Counted from the first letter of the stretch, positions 1-22,156 are shown. The stretch is DNA of 22,156 bases from Spirochaetales bacterium (GCA_016937215.1 JAFGWI010000019.1:1-22156), one strand, 5' to 3'. Translations and numbers: made by a program. The notes: generated by a model from the letters alone, not told the origin.

Positions 1-126
1 CCATAAAGTTTGGTCACATTTCTCAATTCAACTGTTGCCATATTAACCTCCAAGGGAATAATTATTCATGGATTTTGAAATTAAATACTATCATATAATG
101 ATTATTTGTCAAATATCATTATTATC

Positions 127-1341
127 TTATTCTTTAAAAAAGTTCAACAGATCAGTTGGTTTTTTATCTTCTTTTTCGTCGATTGATAAGGCGGATATTA
201 ACCAAGGTAGTAATTGACTGTTTTTAAATTCGCTCCAATTCGGACTAAAGGGCTCTGGGAATTGAAGAAAATCCTCCTGTGGAATTTTGTCTAAAAGCCG
301 GTGATTGTAATTGGGTAAGACCTTTTCGTTTATTACTTTTAAAACCGAGAAACCATTAAAAAAACCACCTGCCTCGGATAATCTTTTTTGATAGCTGGAT
401 TTTAATATCATTTCCTGAGATTCAATGGATAAATACCACTTTAAAAAATGTTTGGCCCCTTCTTTGTTCTTGGCTTGCAAGGGAATGCCAGCAGCGATGA
501 TATCGTCGCCGATGAATATTTTTTCATTTCTCGATAGCCAGCGAAAATCGAGGTTGTTGAGCTTTTCTTCAGGTATTTTATATAAGATGGATGAGGGATA
601 CAAATAAAGCCCTAGAGTGTTTTCCAGAATTAGTTGGTAAGGCGGGGCATTGAAATATTTGACCGTGTTGTTGTAAAAGTCATTCAACTTTTGTTCGAGC
701 CGTGTTTGCCAGTTGTTGAAGAAACTGATGCTTTTATCCAGGTTTTCATCGTTCCAGGTAATGCTATTTACTTTGTTGTAGGAAAAGTGGGCACCGAATA
801 ATTCTGAAATATAATAGAAGATTTCCTGATTATGAACAGGGGAGTAGCCTATTGATTGATACCTATTGTTTTTCATCTGATTGAGCTTGATGCTGTCATC
901 GATAAGCTTATCGATGGAATAAAACATCTCTGGAATCGTGATTTGATTGTTGCTTTGGCTGAAAAAAACGGTTGGCAGGGTGAAGTTGAGCGGTAAAGCG
1001 CGGAGCTCGTTGTTTATCTGACCTAATTTTTTGAGTCCTTGATAGAATTCCTTGTTTATTTCCCCTGATTCCGGAATTAAATCGTTGATTTTTTCAAATT
1101 TGAGCAAATTCTGATGTTCCAGCACGGTATTGCTGATTATCAGATCTGGCTGGTTTTGCTTGTCCATTTCTGTTATGGGGTTTTTGCTGTAAATTATTTT
1201 TAGAATTCGGCTATTCTGGTTTTTATGGTATAGGTCACTGTAGGCCAATAAACTGGGCCTGTTGGTAACAACGGTTATTTCCTGAGATACCTGACAACCG
1301 GATAGAATCAAGCTAAAGATCAAAATAATGTGCCATTTCAT
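127..1341 (-). CDS. Putative substrate-binding lipoprotein (family-1 ABC solute-binding-protein-like), 404 aa
   Basis: N-terminal signal peptide with lipobox (MKWHIILIFSLILSGC). The C-terminal segment EGAKHFLKWYLSIESQEM resembles the conserved A.FidFLls.EaQ motif of family-1 solute-binding proteins. No ATPase or permease is visible downstream inside the window, so any operon would continue past position 1. Confidence 0.45.
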   Translation of the reverse strand: MKWHIILIFSLILSGCQVSQEITVVTNRPSLLAYSDLYHKNQNSRILKIIYSKNPITEMDKQNQPDLIISNTVLEHQNLLKFEKINDLIPESGEINKEFYQGLKKLGQINNELRALPLNFTLPTVFFSQSNNQITIPEMFYSIDKLIDDSIKLNQMKNNRYQSIGYSPVHNQEIFYYISELFGAHFSYNKVNSITWNDENLDKSISFFNNWQTRLEQKLNDFYNNTVKYFNAPPYQLILENTLGLYLYPSSILYKIPEEKLNNLDFRWLSRNEKIFIGDDIIAAGIPLQAKNKEGAKHFLKWYLSIESQEMILKSSYQKRLSEAGGFFNGFSVLKVINEKVLPNYNHRLLDKIPQEDFLQFPEPFSPNWSEFKNSQLLPWLISALSIDEKEDKKPTDLLNFFKE

Positions 1342-1902: not shown

Positions 1903-3246
1903 ATGAAAAAAACATTATTCTGCCTTATGCGGCCGGCGTTTTTATTTTTATTAGTGGTGATGATTTTGTTGTCCGCAATGGGCTGTGATGTGAGAAATGG
2001 GGCGGCTGAGGAAGGGCTTGGTGAAAAGGCTTTATTGGAACCCTTGGCTGTTATTGACCTGGGTGACCAAGGGGCTATCGAGTTTGTTGAGATTTCACCT
2101 GGTGAATTGGTTGTTGGCGCATTGCTGGGTTCTCCTGATGTTCAAATAAAGGGAATTGATGAATCTCCGCTGGCTGTTTACCGATTTTATACAGGCCAAG
2201 AGCCGCCAACTGAATTGCTGGCTGCTTATGAACGCAGCAAGGTTGCTCAGGCTTTGGATTCCGAGGTCACTGGTTCTGATAACCAGGTTATCCGTCAAGC
2301 TAGTTTGGCAGGCCAATCAAAAATGACGGCCAATGAATTTGAATCTGCCTATTTTAACGCGCCCAACATGAGCCAATATGATTATAAGGTGCTTTATAAA
2401 AATTCAACTGCTTTGTTCCGGACTATACAAAATTGTTTTACTCTTGGTATCCGGGTTTATTCCAGCCAGGGAACGGTCCGATTTAACCTGAAAACCAAAA
2501 TTGGAAGCAGCTGGTCAACTGAATATACCCGTGTTGTTCCTCAGGGAAGTACCTATTATGCTTATACTGGAGGAGTTTGGCGTTCCCGAATGGCGGAGGT
2601 TGTTGAGTCGGACAATGACATTTTCCAGGTAATGTATTTTGGAATGAAAAAAATTTTTGTTTGCGCGAGTTTTGGCGGAAGTTCCAGCACTGATATTCAT
2701 CCTGTTGTGGAAGAACAGGTAAAGGCCGAGGGGATTGTGTTCAATAGTAACAACTGGAATAAGAGTTCGGGTGATGGTGTGTGTTCAAGATCCGATGCTG
2801 ATCACGCGGCAGGAGTTATGAAAGACTGGGCTGCTTTGAATTCTCTGCCTCGGGCCAATATGAACCTTCTGGTTGTGGGTAAGAGCGCCGGAGGTGTCCG
2901 GGCCTGGTATGCTTTTAAACGGAATTTCGGGACACTTGATGATTTTAACAAAGTGGCACTGGTTTTTGTCGATCCCCATGGTTCAGCCCTTGGAGATGGT
3001 GAAGTTGGCACTTACAGCGACGATCAGAGCCTGACATGGCCATCATCCTGGTCCACCAACAAGAGCTTTTTCAGGGTCTATAATATTTATCAGCATTCAA
3101 ATGGATTAACAGGAGCCAGTTTTCCAAGTTCCAATGTTTATAAAAACATAAAAATTACCGGCAATAGTGTGAGTCATGATAATATTCCTGGCCGCCAGGA
3201 AACAAAGGATTTGATCAGAGAAGCTGTGAGGTTTTTAAAACCCTGA
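1903..3246 (+). CDS. Putative secreted lipoprotein, serine hydrolase (alpha/beta-hydrolase/lipase-esterase-like), 447 aa
   Basis: Signal peptide MKKTLFCLMRPAFLFLLVVMILLSAMGC with a Cys consistent with a lipobox. Nucleophile-elbow GxSxG motif in LLVVGKSAGGVRAWYAF, with downstream D and H candidates. SD-like aaaggagaaaag lies 5 nt before the ATG. Confidence 0.45.
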   Translation: MKKTLFCLMRPAFLFLLVVMILLSAMGCDVRNGAAEEGLGEKALLEPLAVIDLGDQGAIEFVEISPGELVVGALLGSPDVQIKGIDESPLAVYRFYTGQEPPTELLAAYERSKVAQALDSEVTGSDNQVIRQASLAGQSKMTANEFESAYFNAPNMSQYDYKVLYKNSTALFRTIQNCFTLGIRVYSSQGTVRFNLKTKIGSSWSTEYTRVVPQGSTYYAYTGGVWRSRMAEVVESDNDIFQVMYFGMKKIFVCASFGGSSSTDIHPVVEEQVKAEGIVFNSNNWNKSSGDGVCSRSDADHAAGVMKDWAALNSLPRANMNLLVVGKSAGGVRAWYAFKRNFGTLDDFNKVALVFVDPHGSALGDGEVGTYSDDQSLTWPSSWSTNKSFFRVYNIYQHSNGLTGASFPSSNVYKNIKITGNSVSHDNIPGRQETKDLIREAVRFLKP

Positions 3247-3277
3247 CAGAAATGCTTTGCATTTATTGCTTGGTGGA

Positions 3278-3389
3278 GTGAATTTTCATTGGCATTCACT
3301 TTTTGACGTGAATGCTCATTGGCATTCACTTTTTGACGTGAATGCTCATTGGCATTCACTTTTTGACGTGAATGCTCATTGGCATTCAC
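3278..3389. repeat. Tandem array of four 30-bp units, each carrying the palindrome GTGAATGC-TCATTG-GCATTCAC (REP-like); the first copy has a degenerate left arm (gtgaattt)
   Basis: Read directly from the sequence. Arms gtgaatgc at 3308, 3338 and 3368; arms gcattcac at 3292, 3322, 3352 and 3382; constant loop tcattg; constant inter-unit spacer tttttgac. A further degenerate palindrome aaatgctttgcattt sits at 3250-3264. The array lies between the stop of the hydrolase gene (3246) and its terminator hairpin (3435-3466), i.e. in its 3'UTR. ORFs 3257..3451 (+) and 3174..3506 (-) are translation artefacts of this repeat. Confidence 0.9.
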
Positions 3390-3434
3390 TTTTATCATGC
3401 CGTTATGCTGGAAAATATTGGGCAGAAAAGGCTT

Positions 3435-3480
3435 GGTTGTGCCTGTTATGAAAAATAGGCACAACCTGCTTTCTTTTTCG
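3435..3480 (+). terminator. Rho-independent terminator for the 1903-3246 gene
   Basis: Perfect 10-bp stem ggttgtgcct / aggcacaacc with a 12-nt loop, followed by tgctttctttttcg (T-rich tail). Confidence 0.55.
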
Positions 3481-3570
3481 AATGCATTCAAAAAAATAGC
3501 CCCCATTTAGCTAAACAAATACTTCACAGGCAGCTATAATCTGTAAAAATCATCGTTTTTAGAGCTATTT

Positions 3571-4131
3571 TCAATAATAACGTGTTAATTCCACTTCTTC
3601 CAATGCTGTGTAATGAGCGCCGCGTGGTGTGAGGCGTGATTCAAAAAGCACAAACTTGTCTAGGGAGAATTCAAAGGGCTCGTATATGAATTTATCCAGG
3701 GACCCTGCCGGAACCCTGGCGAATTTGTTTCTGGCCAGGGTAATATGGACCTTGGAGTCCCTCTTTTGTTCGGGCCGATAGCCGAGGCCGCTGATTTCCT
3801 TTAGATAGGTCTTCTGGAAATTGATAATATCACTGCTGCCCTGCCCTAGGGGAGTGTAAATCACCCGGGGCTGTCCCTTTGGCGGGAATTGTTCCAGACC
3901 AAGCAGGACGGTATCTATGGGCGGGCGCTTTAAGGCGCTGCTTGTGTTCATTAACGTTATCAAGTCCTGGACCTGTCCAGGGTTCAGTTCACCGAAAAAA
4001 TGCAGGGTAATGTGAAGCCCCTTGGGTTGGACTGGTTTTAGACCTCGGTAATTACTTTTGAGAAACTCAAAATAGGGTTCAAGGGCTTCAAGGGCCTTGT
4101 CCGGTAATGATAATGCGGCAAATATTCTCAT
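3571..4131 (-). CDS. thpR: RNA 2',3'-cyclic phosphodiesterase / 2'-5' RNA ligase (2H phosphoesterase family)
   Basis: Two HxT/S motifs typical of LigT/ThpR (HITLHFFGE and HITLARN); 186 aa. The stop of the upstream recO overlaps its start by 4 bp (ATGA). Confidence 0.8.
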   Translation of the reverse strand: MRIFAALSLPDKALEALEPYFEFLKSNYRGLKPVQPKGLHITLHFFGELNPGQVQDLITLMNTSSALKRPPIDTVLLGLEQFPPKGQPRVIYTPLGQGSSDIINFQKTYLKEISGLGYRPEQKRDSKVHITLARNKFARVPAGSLDKFIYEPFEFSLDKFVLFESRLTPRGAHYTALEEVELTRYY

Positions 4132-7501: not shown

Positions 7502-7590
7502 GCCATTCCAAATATAAACTATTATTAAGGCAGTTAAAAATCATCAGCTGTAATTAAATTGCATACAAAAAGGTTTATATTTGGAATGGC
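7502..7590. repeat. Perfect 18-bp inverted repeat gccattccaaatataaac / gtttatatttggaatggc separated by 53 AT-rich nt
   Basis: Read directly: 7502-7519 is the exact reverse complement of 7573-7590. Could be a stem-loop RNA or a MITE-like element. Confidence 0.85.
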
Positions 7591-7614
7591 TTAGCCGGGG
7601 GCTTTCAGGCTGCA

Positions 7615-7705
7615 GAAACTGTTGCATAACTATAATTAAGAGTATTTCAACTCGCCTACTGGGTCCATAATTGGTTTAGACGAGTTATTCATAGGCAACA
7701 GTTTC
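7615..7705. repeat. Second long-range inverted repeat gaaactgttgc(ataact) / (agttat)tcatag-gcaacagtttc enclosing about 70 nt
   Basis: 11-bp perfect arms at 7615-7625 and 7695-7705. A 6-bp extension (ataact/agttat) is interrupted by a 6-nt bulge. Confidence 0.6.
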
Positions 7706-7832
7706 GTATTTTAAGGTTGTGCAACAACCTCTGCATGGCCGAGCAACAAATCGAAGATTTGTGACAAGGCCCGCCACTTCGGCTTCGCCTTCGAAGGTTA
7801 AGGTGCGGAAGTTATCCGCCCCTTAACGCTTT

Positions 7833-7862
7833 GTTCGACTATTTTTGAAAAAATAGTCGAAC
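7833..7862. promoter_or_regulatory. Perfect 14+14 bp palindrome gttcgactattttt-ga-aaaaatagtcgaac about 120 bp upstream of the ABC operon
   Basis: Read directly. Flanked by near-direct repeats ccttaacgcttt (7821-7832) and ccctaacgctttt (7875-7887). The AT-rich centre ctatttttgaaaaaatag is nearly the reverse complement of the palindrome at the head of element A (1568-1587). Candidate protein operator or element boundary. Confidence 0.5.
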
Positions 7863-7982
7863 ATGGCTTCAATCCCTAACGCTTTTAGCCGGGGTGCTGT
7901 TATTGGCTAGAGAGGCAGGAAGCATATATTCCGCTGACTTGCTTCCATCAAGGAAATCATAGATTTGGAAAAGGAGAGAACG

Positions 7983-13278: not shown

Positions 13279-13397
13279 GTTTTTTTCAAAAAACCGACGA
13301 AAAGCTTTTTGCCGCGTTTTTAGCGGCAAAAACTTCGGAGCGAAAGCGGAGCAGTGGAATGAACGGCCCCGGAAGGGTGTTTTTGTGCCGGTTTTTT
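13279..13397 (+). ncRNA. Candidate structured RNA/regulatory element, copy B (paralogue of 1564-1735)
   Basis: Palindrome ggttttttt-c-aaaaaacc (13279-13296). Hairpin ttgccgc-gttttta-gcggcaa (13309-13329). cttcgg + agcgaaagcggag (13333-13351). T6 run at 13392-13397. Same order and spacing as copy A, with compensatory changes in the 7-bp hairpin. Confidence 0.3.
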
Positions 13398-16482: not shown

Positions 16483-17499
16483 TCAAGGTTTGTAAACCTG
16501 TGCTGAGTTTTCAGCCCCGAAGCTGGCCTCCCGTGAGGCGCAAATCATCCAGTCCTCTGCCGAGTTGGAGTCGCTGCTGCCCGGAATACGGCCCATGGAA
16601 CGTGTGGCTGTTGAATCATCGGGGTTAATGGCATCTTCGGGCCGAATTTCCGTGCTTCCCGATGCCCAGCCATGCTGTTTAAACAATTCTTCGGCCCTTT
16701 CCATGGTTTTGAGGCTGCCAAAGCCGCGGTATTTTTCATCAGACTGGCTCGTGCGGTTTGAATAGACAAGGCCGTCTATCAGCTCGCCTTGGGGAGAGCT
16801 GTACAAGCTAAGGACACCATTATTGGCGCTTAGTCCTGTGCCCTGGGGCAGCCAGAAATCGTAGGCCTGGTGTGAAGAGTCATAACCCTGTGATATTTCG
16901 GGGCTTTGGATTTCGTTTATTTCTTCGGGGATTCCCTGGGGTTTGGTGTGTAACAGCAGGAAATCGTTGGCTAGAAGTTCCATTGCCGGGAAAACAAAGC
17001 GTTGGTCCCAGTTGTTTCGGGTTCCTTCAAAAAAACAGAGCCCGCCGATATTTCCCGCTTCGAGCAAGCGAATTTCCACCAGATCGGGGTGGGTCGAGCT
17101 GCCCTGGGTCGTGAATTCATTAATCAGGGCTTTGGGGAGCCTGGGATTATAGCCGTAAAAAGCGGCAAGAAGGTCCTGGCTGTTGCCTTGAACGTCATTA
17201 ACCCTGAGGCGCAGAGTGTATTCCTGGCCGGGTATTTGCCCGGTAGTGCTGATGGTCACTGATTGCTTCTCCATCTCTATGCCACTCACTTCGAGTTCCG
17301 GCTCAAAGCTGATATCTTCAGCTGTTAGTTCAATGTTTTCGTCAAAGCTCAGAGTCAGCCCTTTGGGGCTGTTGGAAAAATCCTGGAGCTGGGGAGGGTT
17401 CAGGTCCACCTTTGCCTCGGAGGTTTCAAAGGGCGGGGGAGTGCAGCAGGCCAGAAAGGCCGCTGTGAGGATGTAAATAAGGGTGCTTTTTTGAATCAT
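16483..17499 (-). CDS. Lipoprotein with lamin-tail-domain (LTD)-like segment, 338 aa
   Basis: Lipobox LTAAFLACC. The segment ALINEFTTQGSSTHPDLVEIRLLEAGNIGGL matches the LTD hallmark (INE...dewVEl.N). Pro/Ser-rich linker after the lipobox. Confidence 0.5.
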   Translation of the reverse strand: MIQKSTLIYILTAAFLACCTPPPFETSEAKVDLNPPQLQDFSNSPKGLTLSFDENIELTAEDISFEPELEVSGIEMEKQSVTISTTGQIPGQEYTLRLRVNDVQGNSQDLLAAFYGYNPRLPKALINEFTTQGSSTHPDLVEIRLLEAGNIGGLCFFEGTRNNWDQRFVFPAMELLANDFLLLHTKPQGIPEEINEIQSPEISQGYDSSHQAYDFWLPQGTGLSANNGVLSLYSSPQGELIDGLVYSNRTSQSDEKYRGFGSLKTMERAEELFKQHGWASGSTEIRPEDAINPDDSTATRSMGRIPGSSDSNSAEDWMICASREASFGAENSAQVYKP

Positions 17500-17686
17500 G
17501 GGTGACTCCTTGTGCTATAAAGTGGCTTTAAAAGCCCTGTTTTTTTGCTGACCCCTTCTCTGAGCCAGGCAGCTGGTTTTCAATCCCCTAGGGAATAGGA
17601 AGCAGGCAAGCTTGTTTTTCAAAACAAACGCAGCCAGCAACAACCATGCTGGCCAAAGCTGACAAGCGCAATCAGGCTGCATGGAT

Positions 17687-17744
17687 ATAGTGAATCCCAA
17701 TGAGGATTCACGTGGACATAGTGAATCCCAATGAGGATTCACGT
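17687..17744. repeat. Two tandem 27-bp units (31-bp period) each containing the palindrome GTGAATCC-CAATGA-GGATTCAC
   Basis: Read directly. atagtgaatcccaatgaggattcacgt appears at 17687-17713 and again at 17718-17744. Read on the minus strand it is GTGAATCC-TCATTG-GGATTCAC, the same loop and arm family as the 3278-3389 array. Located in the divergent region between the LTD lipoprotein gene and the Crp/Fnr-like gene. Confidence 0.85.
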
Positions 17745-18082
17745 CACCGAGCAGGAAAGGCGAAGCATTAATGACCAGAGGTCGTAAAACCCTAAAAAAA
17801 CAAAAGTGATTTTCCCGTTGAAAAAAGGCTTCTCAGTGCCAAAAGATTTTAATGCACTATTCCGATAATCATCAGGGGTCCAAGGGTTTTCACTTTGCCG
17901 TTCCCATAAGTATTAATACCCTTGAAATGTCATCCTGCTTTGGGTTTTTTTTATCTTTTTTGTCTACTTTTTTTAAAAAAGCTGAGTTACATTGTAAAAG
18001 GCTTTGAAAGATATTTTTTTCGTTACCATTGCTGCTTGTATTGGTTATAGGGTAAAATCCCCAAAAGAAAGAGGAGTTTTAA

Positions 18083-18703
18083 ATGTCTGATCCAACCTTG
18101 TTCAAGAATTTTGGTCTTCAAGTGCCCAAGGGTGAAACCATTTTCAAAGAAAATGAAGAAGGCAGTAAAATGTACATCATTCAGGAAGGAAAAGTCAGGA
18201 TTTCCAAGAATATCCACGGCAAGGAACATGAACTGGCGGTTTTGATCAAGGGTGAGTTTTTCGGCGAAATGGCCATTGTGACCCAGGAAAAGCGAACGGC
18301 CAGTGCCTCGGCCCTGGAGGATACTTCGCTTCTTTCCTTTGACCGCGAGGGCTTTGCCAGCATGATCAACAAGAACGCCAAAATCGCCTTGAACATTATT
18401 GAAAAACTTTGCCGGCGCTTGCAGGCAGCCAATCAGCAGATCAAGGCCATGGCTCCGCGGAACCTAAAAGGGATGATCGCCCTGAGCCTGTACTATGACT
18501 TTAAAAATGCCGACGGCAAAATGGTCTCCTATTCCAAAAGCCTTGAGGAGATATCCCTGAACCTTCAGCTGCCCTTGCAGGATATCAAGGATCAGGTGGA
18601 AGGAATGATCAAAAGCGGGATTTTAAAGCTGGAGAATGACCAACTGATTCTGCTGAACAGCCCTGGCCTGGATGACATCGCCGACGATGTTGTTAAACGA
18701 TAA
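18083..18703 (+). CDS. Crp/Fnr-family regulator (cNMP-binding domain plus C-terminal winged-helix-like region), 206 aa
   Basis: cNMP-binding beta-roll: YIIQEGKVRISKNIHGKEHELAVLIKGEFFGEMAI...RTASASALEDTSLL. C-terminal SLEEISLNLQLPLQDIKDQVEGMIKSGIL resembles an HTH. AGAGGAG SD 8 nt before the ATG. Confidence 0.65.
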   Translation: MSDPTLFKNFGLQVPKGETIFKENEEGSKMYIIQEGKVRISKNIHGKEHELAVLIKGEFFGEMAIVTQEKRTASASALEDTSLLSFDREGFASMINKNAKIALNIIEKLCRRLQAANQQIKAMAPRNLKGMIALSLYYDFKNADGKMVSYSKSLEEISLNLQLPLQDIKDQVEGMIKSGILKLENDQLILLNSPGLDDIADDVVKR

Positions 18704-21094: not shown

Positions 21095-22156
21095 TTAGTT
21101 ATTCATCATAGTAGCGCAAAAAACGATAAAATTTTGAGCCGGGTATTCGATCCCATTTATTGTAACGGTCCCAACAGCTGTATCTGTGTAGATAGTATCA
21201 CTCGTAACATCATAATTAGCCACAATCGTTGAAATGGTCGTTGAGTCAAAAGTAATAACCAAATTTGCGGTTATGGTTCTGGTCGTGTCTTCATTAAAGG
21301 TTTCTGAAAGTGTTCCGTTTACTGAAAATGGATGTGGTGAAGTTGGTAAGGGTGTATTTGTGAATGTTGTTATTTGTCCATTATCAGAGATGGGTGTTTT
21401 CTCAATGGTGGGATCCTGATCTCCAGCAGCCCAGCTGAGCATCATTGCTGTGAATAAAAAATTATATCCTATTTCTTCATTGTCTATTTCAGGATCTGGT
21501 GTTACTTCAGGGTCGTTTGAAATATTTTGAATCAAATAAGTATAAAATGCCTGAGCGTTTATTTCAACATCGTTTATAATAATTGTACCGACTGCAATAG
21601 GATCGGCTATGTTCGAATTGTCATAATCAAATGACCCGTTGATTGTGAATAAATTGGGGTCATTGGTGAAAATGAAATTGAAAGTTATATTTCCGTTTAT
21701 TTCTGTGCCAGTTGATAATAAATTTCCGCTTGCCTTATAATCTGGTTCTTCTGAATTGTATACAGCATTATTTAAAGTTGCATTCATCACGCCATCACTA
21801 TTGCTAGCTGAAACTGTTGTGCCATCAGGGTCAGTGATCTGTCGATAAAGATTTGTGCATACCTCATAAGCATATAATTCTGTTTCTTCATTTAACACCG
21901 GGATTTCAGTTACTTCAGGTTCCGGTGTCACTTCAGGTTCCGGTGTCACTTCAGGTTCTGGTGTCACTTCAGGTTCTGGTGTCACTTCAGGTTCTGGTGT
22001 CACTTCAGGTTCCGGTGTCACTTCAGGTTCTGGTGTCACTTCAGGTTCCGGTGTTACTTCAGGTTCCGGTGTTACTTCAGGTTCCGGTGTTACTTCAGGT
22101 TCCGGTGTTACTTCAGGTTCCGGTGTTACTTCAGGTTCTGGTGTTACTTCAGGTTC
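21095..22156 (-). CDS. Secreted/surface repeat protein, 5'-truncated by the window edge: N-terminal (TPEPEV)n linker then two related Thr/Asn/Ile-rich beta-type domains
   Basis: The reading frame is open to the end of the window. The M at 22039 in the ORF track is a GTG (Val) codon inside the repeat, not a start. The C-terminal part contains an internal duplication ([22 protein letters not shown] vs [22 protein letters not shown]). Confidence 0.7.
21911..22156. repeat. At least 13 tandem copies of the 18-bp unit ggttcYggtgtYacttca (encoding TPEPEV on the minus strand), continuing past the window end
   Basis: Read directly. Units differ only at two Y positions, which fall on third codon positions (ccg/cca Pro, gtg/gta Val). 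Confidence 0.9.

Follow-up and report, generated by a model that had tools for sequence, protein, structure and literature searches.

Modular interspersed repeats with an internal array of variable length are known from Porphyromonas gingivalis and from the pneumococcus. In the former, BrickBuilt, a transposable element of the miniature inverted-repeat class (MITE), is made up of a leader, then 23-nt minisatellite units whose number varies, and finally a tail; it is multicopy, always intergenic and species-restricted, and it has small inverted-repeat ends (PMC4596501). In the latter, BOX elements are built as boxA-(boxB)n-boxC, with the internal unit present in zero to several tandem copies, and repeats of this species are found more often than expected between convergent genes, their transcripts are predicted to form stem-loops, and a role as terminators or as transcript stabilisers has been proposed for them (PMC3049150). 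Repetitive extragenic palindromes (REPs) are 20-40-bp palindromes with 8-9-bp stems and short loops, whose subfamilies show compensatory stem changes; their GTAG or CGTC tag is left unpaired, they are found chiefly as inverted dimers (head-to-head or tail-to-tail, with head-to-tail pairs being negligible), and those with a GTAG tag flank RAYT genes, while one to three units of the SMAG elements downstream of a gene can alter transcript stability (PMC3733652, PMC3184786). Here, we examine a contig of 22,156 nucleotides from a Spirochaetales bacterium (GCA_016937215.1 JAFGWI010000019.1:1-22156; the window, by which we mean this whole stretch) and, in particular, two perfect palindromes at 17687-17744, in the divergent gap between a putative lipoprotein gene and a gene for a Crp/Fnr-like protein.

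Our analysis suggests, with a probability of roughly 0.6, that these palindromes are a tandemly amplified hairpin within one subfamily of a lineage-specific, small, structured and interspersed intergenic repeat. The family resembles BOX and BrickBuilt in its layout and is set apart from both by the published descriptions of those elements.

Palindromic units and the module that contains them

The two units of the regulator/lipoprotein gap (locus 2) lie within a 31-nt tandem duplication at 17682-17744 on the minus strand, for which Tandem Repeats Finder reports a period of 31, 2.0 copies and 96% matches, and which a repeat search of the window recovered as a family at 97% identity. On the plus strand, positions 17690-17711 and 17721-17742 each read GTGAATCCCAATGAGGATTCAC, a perfect 22-nt palindrome; on the minus strand both read GTGAATCC-TCATTG-GGATTCAC, unit 1 being the one at 17721-17742 and unit 2, identical to it in the core, the one at 17690-17711. 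The pattern GTGAATNNTCATTGNNATTCAC matches the window at these two sites and at four plus-strand sites at 3278-3389, and nowhere else, and it has no match in 100 dinucleotide shuffles of the window. The four plus-strand sites form the array of locus 1 (3278-3393, plus strand, four units with a period of 30), whose first unit is degenerate (GTGAATTT..GCATTCAC). The first-pass annotation had described a two-unit tandem of the same family as the array at 3278, with a swapped central stem pair that preserves the hairpin, and both descriptions hold: the sole difference between the intact units of the two loci is pair 7:16, which is G:C at locus 1 and C:G at locus 2, a compensatory change. Despite this swap, the loop is invariant between the loci, as is the U.G pair that closes the stem and that exists in the sense strand only. 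A locus-2 unit folds into a 9-bp stem, including the U.G closing pair, with a CAUU loop, at -10.9 kcal/mol for the minus strand and -10.0 kcal/mol for the plus strand. The arms are perfect 8-bp dyads that end in GTGA and TCAC, which sets the half-sites at a spacing of GTGA-N14-TCAC.

With their 22 nt, 8-9-bp stem, 4-6-nt loop and intergenic position, the units are similar to REPs, whose stems range from 5 to 13 bp. REPs number tens to thousands in a genome; the 22 kb examined here contain two palindrome loci. However, the units lack a GTAG tag. On the sense strand, GACG (CGTC on the other strand) stands before four of the six, yet its G already pairs as the first base of the stem; the remaining two are preceded by GGAG and CACG. 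In further contrast to REPs, all six units are arranged head-to-tail, repeating every 30 or 31 nt, and the window yielded no RAYT gene. The inter-unit spacers, 8-9 nt long and identical or nearly so within each array, also led us to reject a CRISPR array, which would have unique spacers of repeat-like length.

The palindromes and the elements that contain them are real, since the same sequences are present in the Logan assemblies of runs SRR13394436 and SRR13394437, which are independent of the assembly of the metagenome-assembled genome (MAG; locus tags JXR70_*). The Logan contigs break inside the arrays, and the unit counts (two and four) are those of the MAG assembly only. We considered whether Logan contig ends in general could signal extra copies and rejected this, as the contigs of this organism are fragmentary anyway (one of 1476 nt has ends unrelated to repeats); the breaks within the tandem arrays are the only meaningful ones.

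Both arrays are embedded in a common module: first comes a leader of 27 nt, then the hairpin units in number n, and last a tail of about 100 nt with two hairpins. The leader of locus 2 (17743-17769, minus strand; AATGCTTCGCCTTTCCTGCTCGGTGAC) has its counterpart at 3251-3277 on the plus strand of locus 1, where it begins 5 nt past the stop codon of gene 1903-3246. Placed in register with the first unit, the two leaders read AATGCTTTGCATTTATTGCTTGGTG (3251-3275) and AATGCTTCGCCTTTCCTGCTCGGTG (17745-17769, minus strand) and are identical at 20 of 25 positions; the motif occurs at these two sites of the window only, and its alignment score was reached by none of 1000 shuffles. The tails of the two loci can be aligned collinearly over about 90 nt (z = 6.6, again with none of 1000 shuffles at that score), which makes the homologous flank between the loci about 130 nt long. 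The polarity that had been proposed for the element is thus fixed; it had been argued from the conservation of the loop, but what explains it is that the region as a whole is a single homologous module, with leader, units and tail in the same orientation at both loci, and not the loop alone. The leader could seem to reach into gene 1903-3246, over its last six codons, which we rejected. The weak 23-nt similarity over the end of this gene is marginal, its score being reached by 11 of 1000 shuffles and by 45 of 963 random segments of the window, and the bases up to 3246 are ancestral coding sequence, because the C-terminus REAVRFLKP* is conserved in the orthologues.

The tail itself (3381-3488, plus strand, at locus 1; 17583-17698, minus strand, at locus 2, where it begins in the 3' arm of the last palindrome) contains two hairpins. 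The second hairpin of locus 1 (H2, 3435-3466) is followed by a U-rich tract and, in a terminator scan, came out as an intrinsic terminator, both strong and bidirectional. The genes on either side of locus 1, 1903-3246 (plus strand) and 3571-4131 (minus strand), converge on it with their 3' ends, and H2 would act as a terminator between them, in which it is reminiscent of the dispersed terminator-like hairpin of the pneumococcal SPRITE repeat (PMC3049150). Its homologue at locus 2 (17605-17635, minus strand) is weaker and has no U-run. Compared between the two loci, H2 comprises 13 pairs with 96% of cells paired, two compensatory pairs and three G.U changes. The first tail hairpin of locus 2 (17631-17655, minus strand; GGCCAGCA...TGCTGGCT) was recovered both as a terminator-like match in the scan and in minimum-free-energy folds. 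The locus-1 tail folds at -25.1 kcal/mol in the sense orientation versus -18.7 kcal/mol in antisense, and a second such pair of tail-hairpin folds gave -20.9 versus -15.9 kcal/mol.

A five-copy family of two-hairpin elements

The tail is not confined to the two loci with palindromes. A search by nhmmer with the tail of locus 1 as query uncovered a third copy at about 1554-1629 on the minus strand (E 2.7e-6), and a hidden Markov model (HMM) of the three tails then matched 7807-7885 on the plus strand (E 1.1e-5) and 13280-13333 on the minus strand (E 0.023). These three additional copies, hereafter L3, L4 and L5, have in common a longer core that consists of CTCCGAAGG, H1, AACGCTTTG, H2 and CATGCC-TCCTATCCCTAAC, in which the G+C-rich base of H2 is variable and its top, ATTTTTGAAAAAAT, is conserved. 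The window thus contains five copies of an intergenic element with a core of about 110 nt and two hairpins, H1 and H2.

An alignment of the five copies spans about 110 nt, and the RNAalifold prediction drawn from it contains 13 pairs in H1 and 14 pairs in H2. In this alignment, 87.2% of the cells assigned to stems are paired, against 65.4% in shuffles (none of 500 reached the observed value), and in 19 of the 27 stem pairs both partners have changed, where shuffles average 7.9; when the partner columns are slid by one to three positions, pairing falls to 42-50%. The stems therefore covary. The excess of G.U pairs is not significant (eight G.U cells versus three C.A cells), and the U-tract after H2 is found at locus 1 only. 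A covariance model built from the alignment and run on the window scores the five copies at 68-120 bits, while the rest of the window remains at or below 26 bits, the lower matches being antisense self-matches. The highest score belongs to L3 (1540-1651, minus strand, 119.6 bits), about 200 nt upstream of gene 127-1341 (minus strand), followed by L4 (7773-7885, plus strand, 109.3 bits), 80 nt upstream of an ABC/FtsX/LolA-like operon, by locus 1 (94.5 bits), by L5 (13250-13355, minus strand, 80.2 bits), about 200 nt downstream of a DUF5312 gene, and by locus 2 (68.1 bits, E 2.7e-16). Pairwise identity over the core ranges from 39 to 68%.

L3, L4 and L5 are devoid of GTGAAT palindromes, and no counterpart of the leader and the GTGAAT hairpin could be found upstream of them. 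Nevertheless, the 3' arm of the last palindrome (GGCATTCAC) can be aligned with the start of the core in other copies (GGCACTCCGC, GCCACTTCGG), so that the palindrome seems to have originated within one subfamily and to have been amplified on the spot thereafter. The five copies are all intergenic and occupy five of the seven gaps of the contig that are longer than 300 nt. Each is co-oriented with an adjacent gene, although for four of the five this is uninformative, as they lie in convergent or divergent gaps.

This layout, with 5' and 3' modules around four or two units, three copies that have the tail and no units, and dispersed intergenic positions, is that of BOX and BrickBuilt elements. 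The likeness to BrickBuilt extends to the sequence of leader, variable tandem units and tail, to the intergenic setting and to the presence of multiple copies. In contrast to BrickBuilt, we found no inverted-repeat ends, the tandem part is present in only two of the five copies, and the 23-nt units of BrickBuilt follow each other without spacers and are not described as perfect hairpins (PMC4596501). With BOX, the family has in common the modular composition, an internal tandem unit of variable number and a probable position in untranslated regions (UTRs); it differs in that BOX belongs to another phylum, boxB is 45 nt long and not a perfect palindrome, and BOX copies are far more alike than the 39-68% observed here (PMC3049150).

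Some other structured sequences were noticed close to the copies. Directly 5' of L3, at 1652-1700 on the minus strand, there is a cluster of G+C-rich hairpins (ACCTGCC...GGCAGGT and CCGGC...GCTGG) in a genome of 44% G+C, with no match in Rfam. The 600-nt gap upstream of the ABC/FtsX/LolA-like operon, which houses L4, also contains long inverted repeats (7502-7538 with 7554-7590, and 7614-7624 with 7696-7706) and a hairpin at 7715-7729 (GGTTGTGCAACAACC), whose stem matches that of the locus-1 H2 and which may be what is left of a further copy.

In the collections searched beyond the window, the family was found in no other organism. With GTGAATNNTCATTGNNATTCAC as an exact pattern, GTDB representative genomes gave 16 singletons and JGI metagenomes 19, and viral contigs gave none. 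These singletons come from unrelated taxa, have non-complementary NN pairs and no common flanks, and their number corresponds to chance, which predicts about 17 for 596 Gb; those collections therefore contain neither the source genome nor a relative that carries the family. The locus-1 module had no blastn match among plasmids and phages, and in-frame translations of the arrays, compared with a set of 5.8 billion proteins for spurious open reading frames (ORFs) over other arrays, returned no candidates. No Rfam family matched the window at the gathering threshold, and in E-value mode the best matches reached 15-23 bits against thresholds of 40-376.

The regulator/lipoprotein gap and its counterparts in relatives

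The palindromes of locus 2 are located 191-243 nt upstream of the ATG (17499) of the putative lipoprotein gene, with which they are co-oriented, and 341-393 nt upstream of the divergent gene 18083-18703, in agreement with the position first described for them. The gene downstream of the element (16483-17499, minus strand) encodes a TP_1001-like putative lipoprotein. Its initial designation as a lamin-tail-domain lipoprotein can be kept in its second half, as the product has a plausible lipobox (N-terminus ...LTAAFLAC) and is assigned to PF26342 (TP_1001_2nd) in a precomputed table, but not in its first half, as our Pfam scans of the product gave no match to any model, the lamin-tail domain included. 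Similarly, the product of gene 18083-18703 (plus strand), divergent from the lipoprotein gene and initially labelled a Crp/Fnr-type regulator, has a cyclic-nucleotide-binding domain, but no helix-turn-helix domain was called by Pfam. The label 'Crp/Fnr-like' nevertheless appears reasonable, because residues 13-193 align with Mycobacterium tuberculosis CRP and the product also aligns with GlxR structures. Matches of this protein to PADLOC models (Pycsar, TIR effector) were rejected as a sign of a defence system, as they cover the cyclic-nucleotide-binding domain only (residues 13-125). For gene 1903-3246, upstream of the array of locus 1, domain scans provided no family assignment.

The divergent regulator/lipoprotein pair is kept in the related loci L041, L042, L043 and L044, with lipoprotein identities of 59%, 50% and, for the last two, 46%; L043 and L044 also have QueG-like and DUF5312 genes downstream, as in the window. 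This conserved pairing of a Crp-like and a TP_1001-like gene across distant Spirochaetales suggests a functional link between the two. The spacers between the genes measure 255 nt in L041, 103 nt in L042 and 229 nt in L043/L044, compared with 583 nt here, and they contain neither GTGA-N14-TCAC, nor a perfect hairpin with arms of at least 7 bp, nor a tandem repeat. The element is thus absent from the orthologous gap of three relatives.

The sole conserved part of the gap is a block at 17900-17990 (minus strand), which could be aligned with L041, L042 and L043 and is probably the promoter/operator region of the divergent pair. It includes a perfect 10-bp palindrome, GTATTAATAC, at 17910-17919, with counterparts in L041 (GTATTAATAT) and L042 (GTTAATATT); in L042, the homologous TTAATAT is about 20 nt upstream of the ribosome-binding site (RBS) of the lipoprotein gene. 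GTATTAATAC is a candidate -10 element or operator for the divergent pair, and as a possible site for the Crp-like protein it would be preferable to the GTGAAT palindromes. The extra ~330 nt of our contig lie between the conserved block and the lipoprotein RBS, and it is there that the module is found. Similarly, the 3' spacers of the orthologues of gene 1903-3246 are 31-83 nt long, versus 324 nt here. We infer that the module was inserted at the regulator/lipoprotein locus, and an insertion explains this locus better than a conserved operator does, because the relatives keep the gene pair with short, palindrome-free spacers. Since the putative ancestral promoter block is located further upstream, the hairpins are probably in the 5' UTR of the lipoprotein mRNA, which would be about 395 nt long if the ancestral promoter is still used. 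The transcription start is itself an inference, because no sigma-70-like promoter passed the scan anywhere in 17400-18150.

Two observations concern the ends of the contig. At 21912-22156, an 18-nt tandem repeat in 13.6 copies encodes (EPEVTP)n; the ORF, on the minus strand, has this stretch towards its N-terminus and continues past the contig end, and the MAG contig and the Logan contigs both terminate in this coding repeat. The left end (window 1-40) falls within the 5' end of a gene on the minus strand, the product of which starts with MATVELRNVTKLYG and resembles the N-terminus of an ABC-type ATPase; this end is thus not in a repeat.

Origin of the palindromes and competing explanations

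Taken as an interspersed repeat, the family would have the two-hairpin core of about 110 nt as its base. One subfamily (3251-3488 and 17583-17769) would have gained a leader and a perfect 22-nt hairpin on its 5' side, and this hairpin would have been multiplied by local tandem duplication, to 4 x 30 nt at locus 1 and to 2 x 31 nt at locus 2. Copies may have spread as a non-autonomous repeat, either by hairpin-mediated mobilisation in trans or by recombination. Mobilisation of hairpins in trans has been proposed for REPs with RAYT, and likewise for single-strand transposition of the IS200/IS605 type. The element would have no sequence-specific regulatory role of its own, although its hairpins, when transcribed within untranslated regions, may incidentally affect host mRNA. 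At locus 2, the module would now stand between the conserved promoter block and the lipoprotein RBS, with an H2 that has lost its U-run. A passive extragenic repeat, which the first-pass annotation had raised as the outcome that would refute its own proposal, is thus close to the best explanation, because the tail belongs to a five-copy structured family.

Several points weigh against an interspersed repeat. The ends of the element are poorly defined, with no visible target-site duplication, and terminal inverted repeats, which would be expected of a MITE, are missing from both modules, the 5' end compared with the reverse-complemented 3' end scoring at shuffle level. No transposase domain was detected in the 20 longest ORFs of the window. 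The copies are old, at 39-68% core identity, unlike those of recently active repeats, and they were counted in one contig of the genome only. The palindrome family was not retrieved by pattern from any of the public collections scanned, and the covariance model, run on 118 kb of other loci (about 101 kb of which from other Spirochaetales), found nothing beyond the Logan contigs of this organism; mobility of the family is putative. The nearest relative has 59% protein identity, so that there is no clean empty site in a close relative. Finally, stems that are preserved by compensation could instead mean a function for the host.

The last point leads to the main rival of the interspersed repeat, a functional RNA module in which the two-hairpin core and the GTGAAUSC-UCAUUG-GSAUUCAC hairpins would be selected parts of untranslated regions, or small RNAs processed from them. 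They might terminate or attenuate transcription, block 3'-5' exonucleases, or offer a multivalent set of docking sites to an RNA-binding protein that recognises the conserved loop. We regard this as possible, though clearly less probable than a repeat. It would account for the strong covariation of the stems in spite of the low identity, for the invariance of the unit loop alongside a swapped stem pair and of the sense-only U.G closing pair, for the better folding of the tail hairpins in sense and for the quality of the locus-1 H2 as an intrinsic terminator; as all five copies are co-oriented with an adjacent gene, sense transcription is possible. Yet five copies in 22 kb beside unrelated genes fit a repeat better than one specific regulator, the relatives run the same genes without the element, no promoter was detected in the scans and Rfam has no matching family, while orientation, the G.U excess and the U-tract that only locus 1 possesses lend the RNA hypothesis little, for the reasons given above. 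A bolder version, that the five-copy core is an undescribed class of structured RNA in untranslated regions of an uncultured Spirochaetales lineage and that the amplified GUGAAUSC-UCAUUG-GSAUUCAC hairpins are multivalent sites for an RNA-binding protein or a titratable sponge, appears unlikely to us; if true, how strongly the host mRNA is expressed, or how stable it is, would depend on the number of units, in this case for the TP_1001-like lipoprotein mRNA. Two known RNA types, judged by their consensus motifs, were rejected along the way: a CsrB/RsmZ-like sponge, as GGA is not conserved (locus 1 has GCAUUCAC), and ANTAR dual hairpins, as the UCAUUG loop has no A1/G4 pattern and arrays are present in a 3' UTR as well.

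At the DNA level, the palindromes could be read as an operator array for a dimeric protein such as the adjacent Crp/Fnr-like regulator, with 22-bp sites spaced for cooperative binding. The operators of the CRP/FNR family have the form TGTGA-N6-TCACA. The perfect 8-bp arms with their GTGA and TCAC ends, the period of 30-31 bp, close to three helical turns, and the location of locus 2 in a divergent gap beside a cyclic-nucleotide-binding protein that aligns over its full length with CRP-family structures make this reading tempting. However, the half-sites are separated by N14 instead of the N6 geometry of CRP, Rex and GlxR sites, and there is no GTGA-N6-TCAC anywhere in the 583-nt gap; three relatives have the same gene pair and no palindromes, and the larger array lies between two convergent 3' ends, which is not a promoter context. 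Moreover, about 130 nt of homologous flank is what one expects of a duplicated element, not of independently evolved operators, and the sole substitution between the loci is one that keeps pairing and not a recognition sequence. We therefore consider an operator array very improbable, and the doubt that was expressed from the outset about a link to the Crp-like protein, on the ground of spacing, was well placed. Resemblance of the half-sites to GTGAA/TTCAC also brought parS and Rex sites into consideration, and both were rejected on orientation or spacing, again by comparison with consensus motifs. A one-off local duplication, in which the 3' flank of gene 1903-3246 would just have been copied to locus 2, with no family behaviour, is scarcely more probable: the weak 23-nt similarity that reaches into the coding end of that gene favours it but is marginal, three more copies of the core exist without leader or array, and the copies are too diverged for a single recent duplication. 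The last candidate comes from type III toxin-antitoxin loci such as ToxIN, in which tandem repeats are followed by a terminator and then by the toxin gene (PMC3401426). An orphan antitoxin array of this type would explain short tandem direct repeats followed by a palindromic terminator, the antitoxin half of such a locus; with 30-31 nt and two to four copies, the repeats border on the published ranges (31-62 nt, 1.9-5.6 copies), and such loci have been reported in Treponema (PMC3401426). Nonetheless, no gene similar to ToxN, CptN or TenpN follows either array, Pfam and PADLOC being negative for the neighbouring ORFs: the gene downstream of locus 2 is the conserved lipoprotein gene, whose orthologues have no repeats, and locus 1 is followed by no plus-strand gene. 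In addition, the units are simple hairpins and not pseudoknot-forming repeats, and the tail occurs without tandem repeats at three other loci. With its toxin gene missing, this explanation is effectively refuted.

The interspersed repeat thus remains our preferred reading, and it removes from the annotation of this locus a tempting but unsupported interpretation of a conspicuous palindrome as a Crp operator. It would also explain two features of the genome, namely the unusual length of intergenic regions in this contig, five of whose seven gaps above 300 nt contain a copy, and the breaks of short-read assemblies of this organism at these sites. More broadly, the family would give the small class of modular repeats with an internal hairpin array of variable number, such as BOX and BrickBuilt, a member from the spirochaetes. 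If such elements modulate termination or mRNA stability, the insertion in the 5' UTR of the lipoprotein gene would provide a natural test case.

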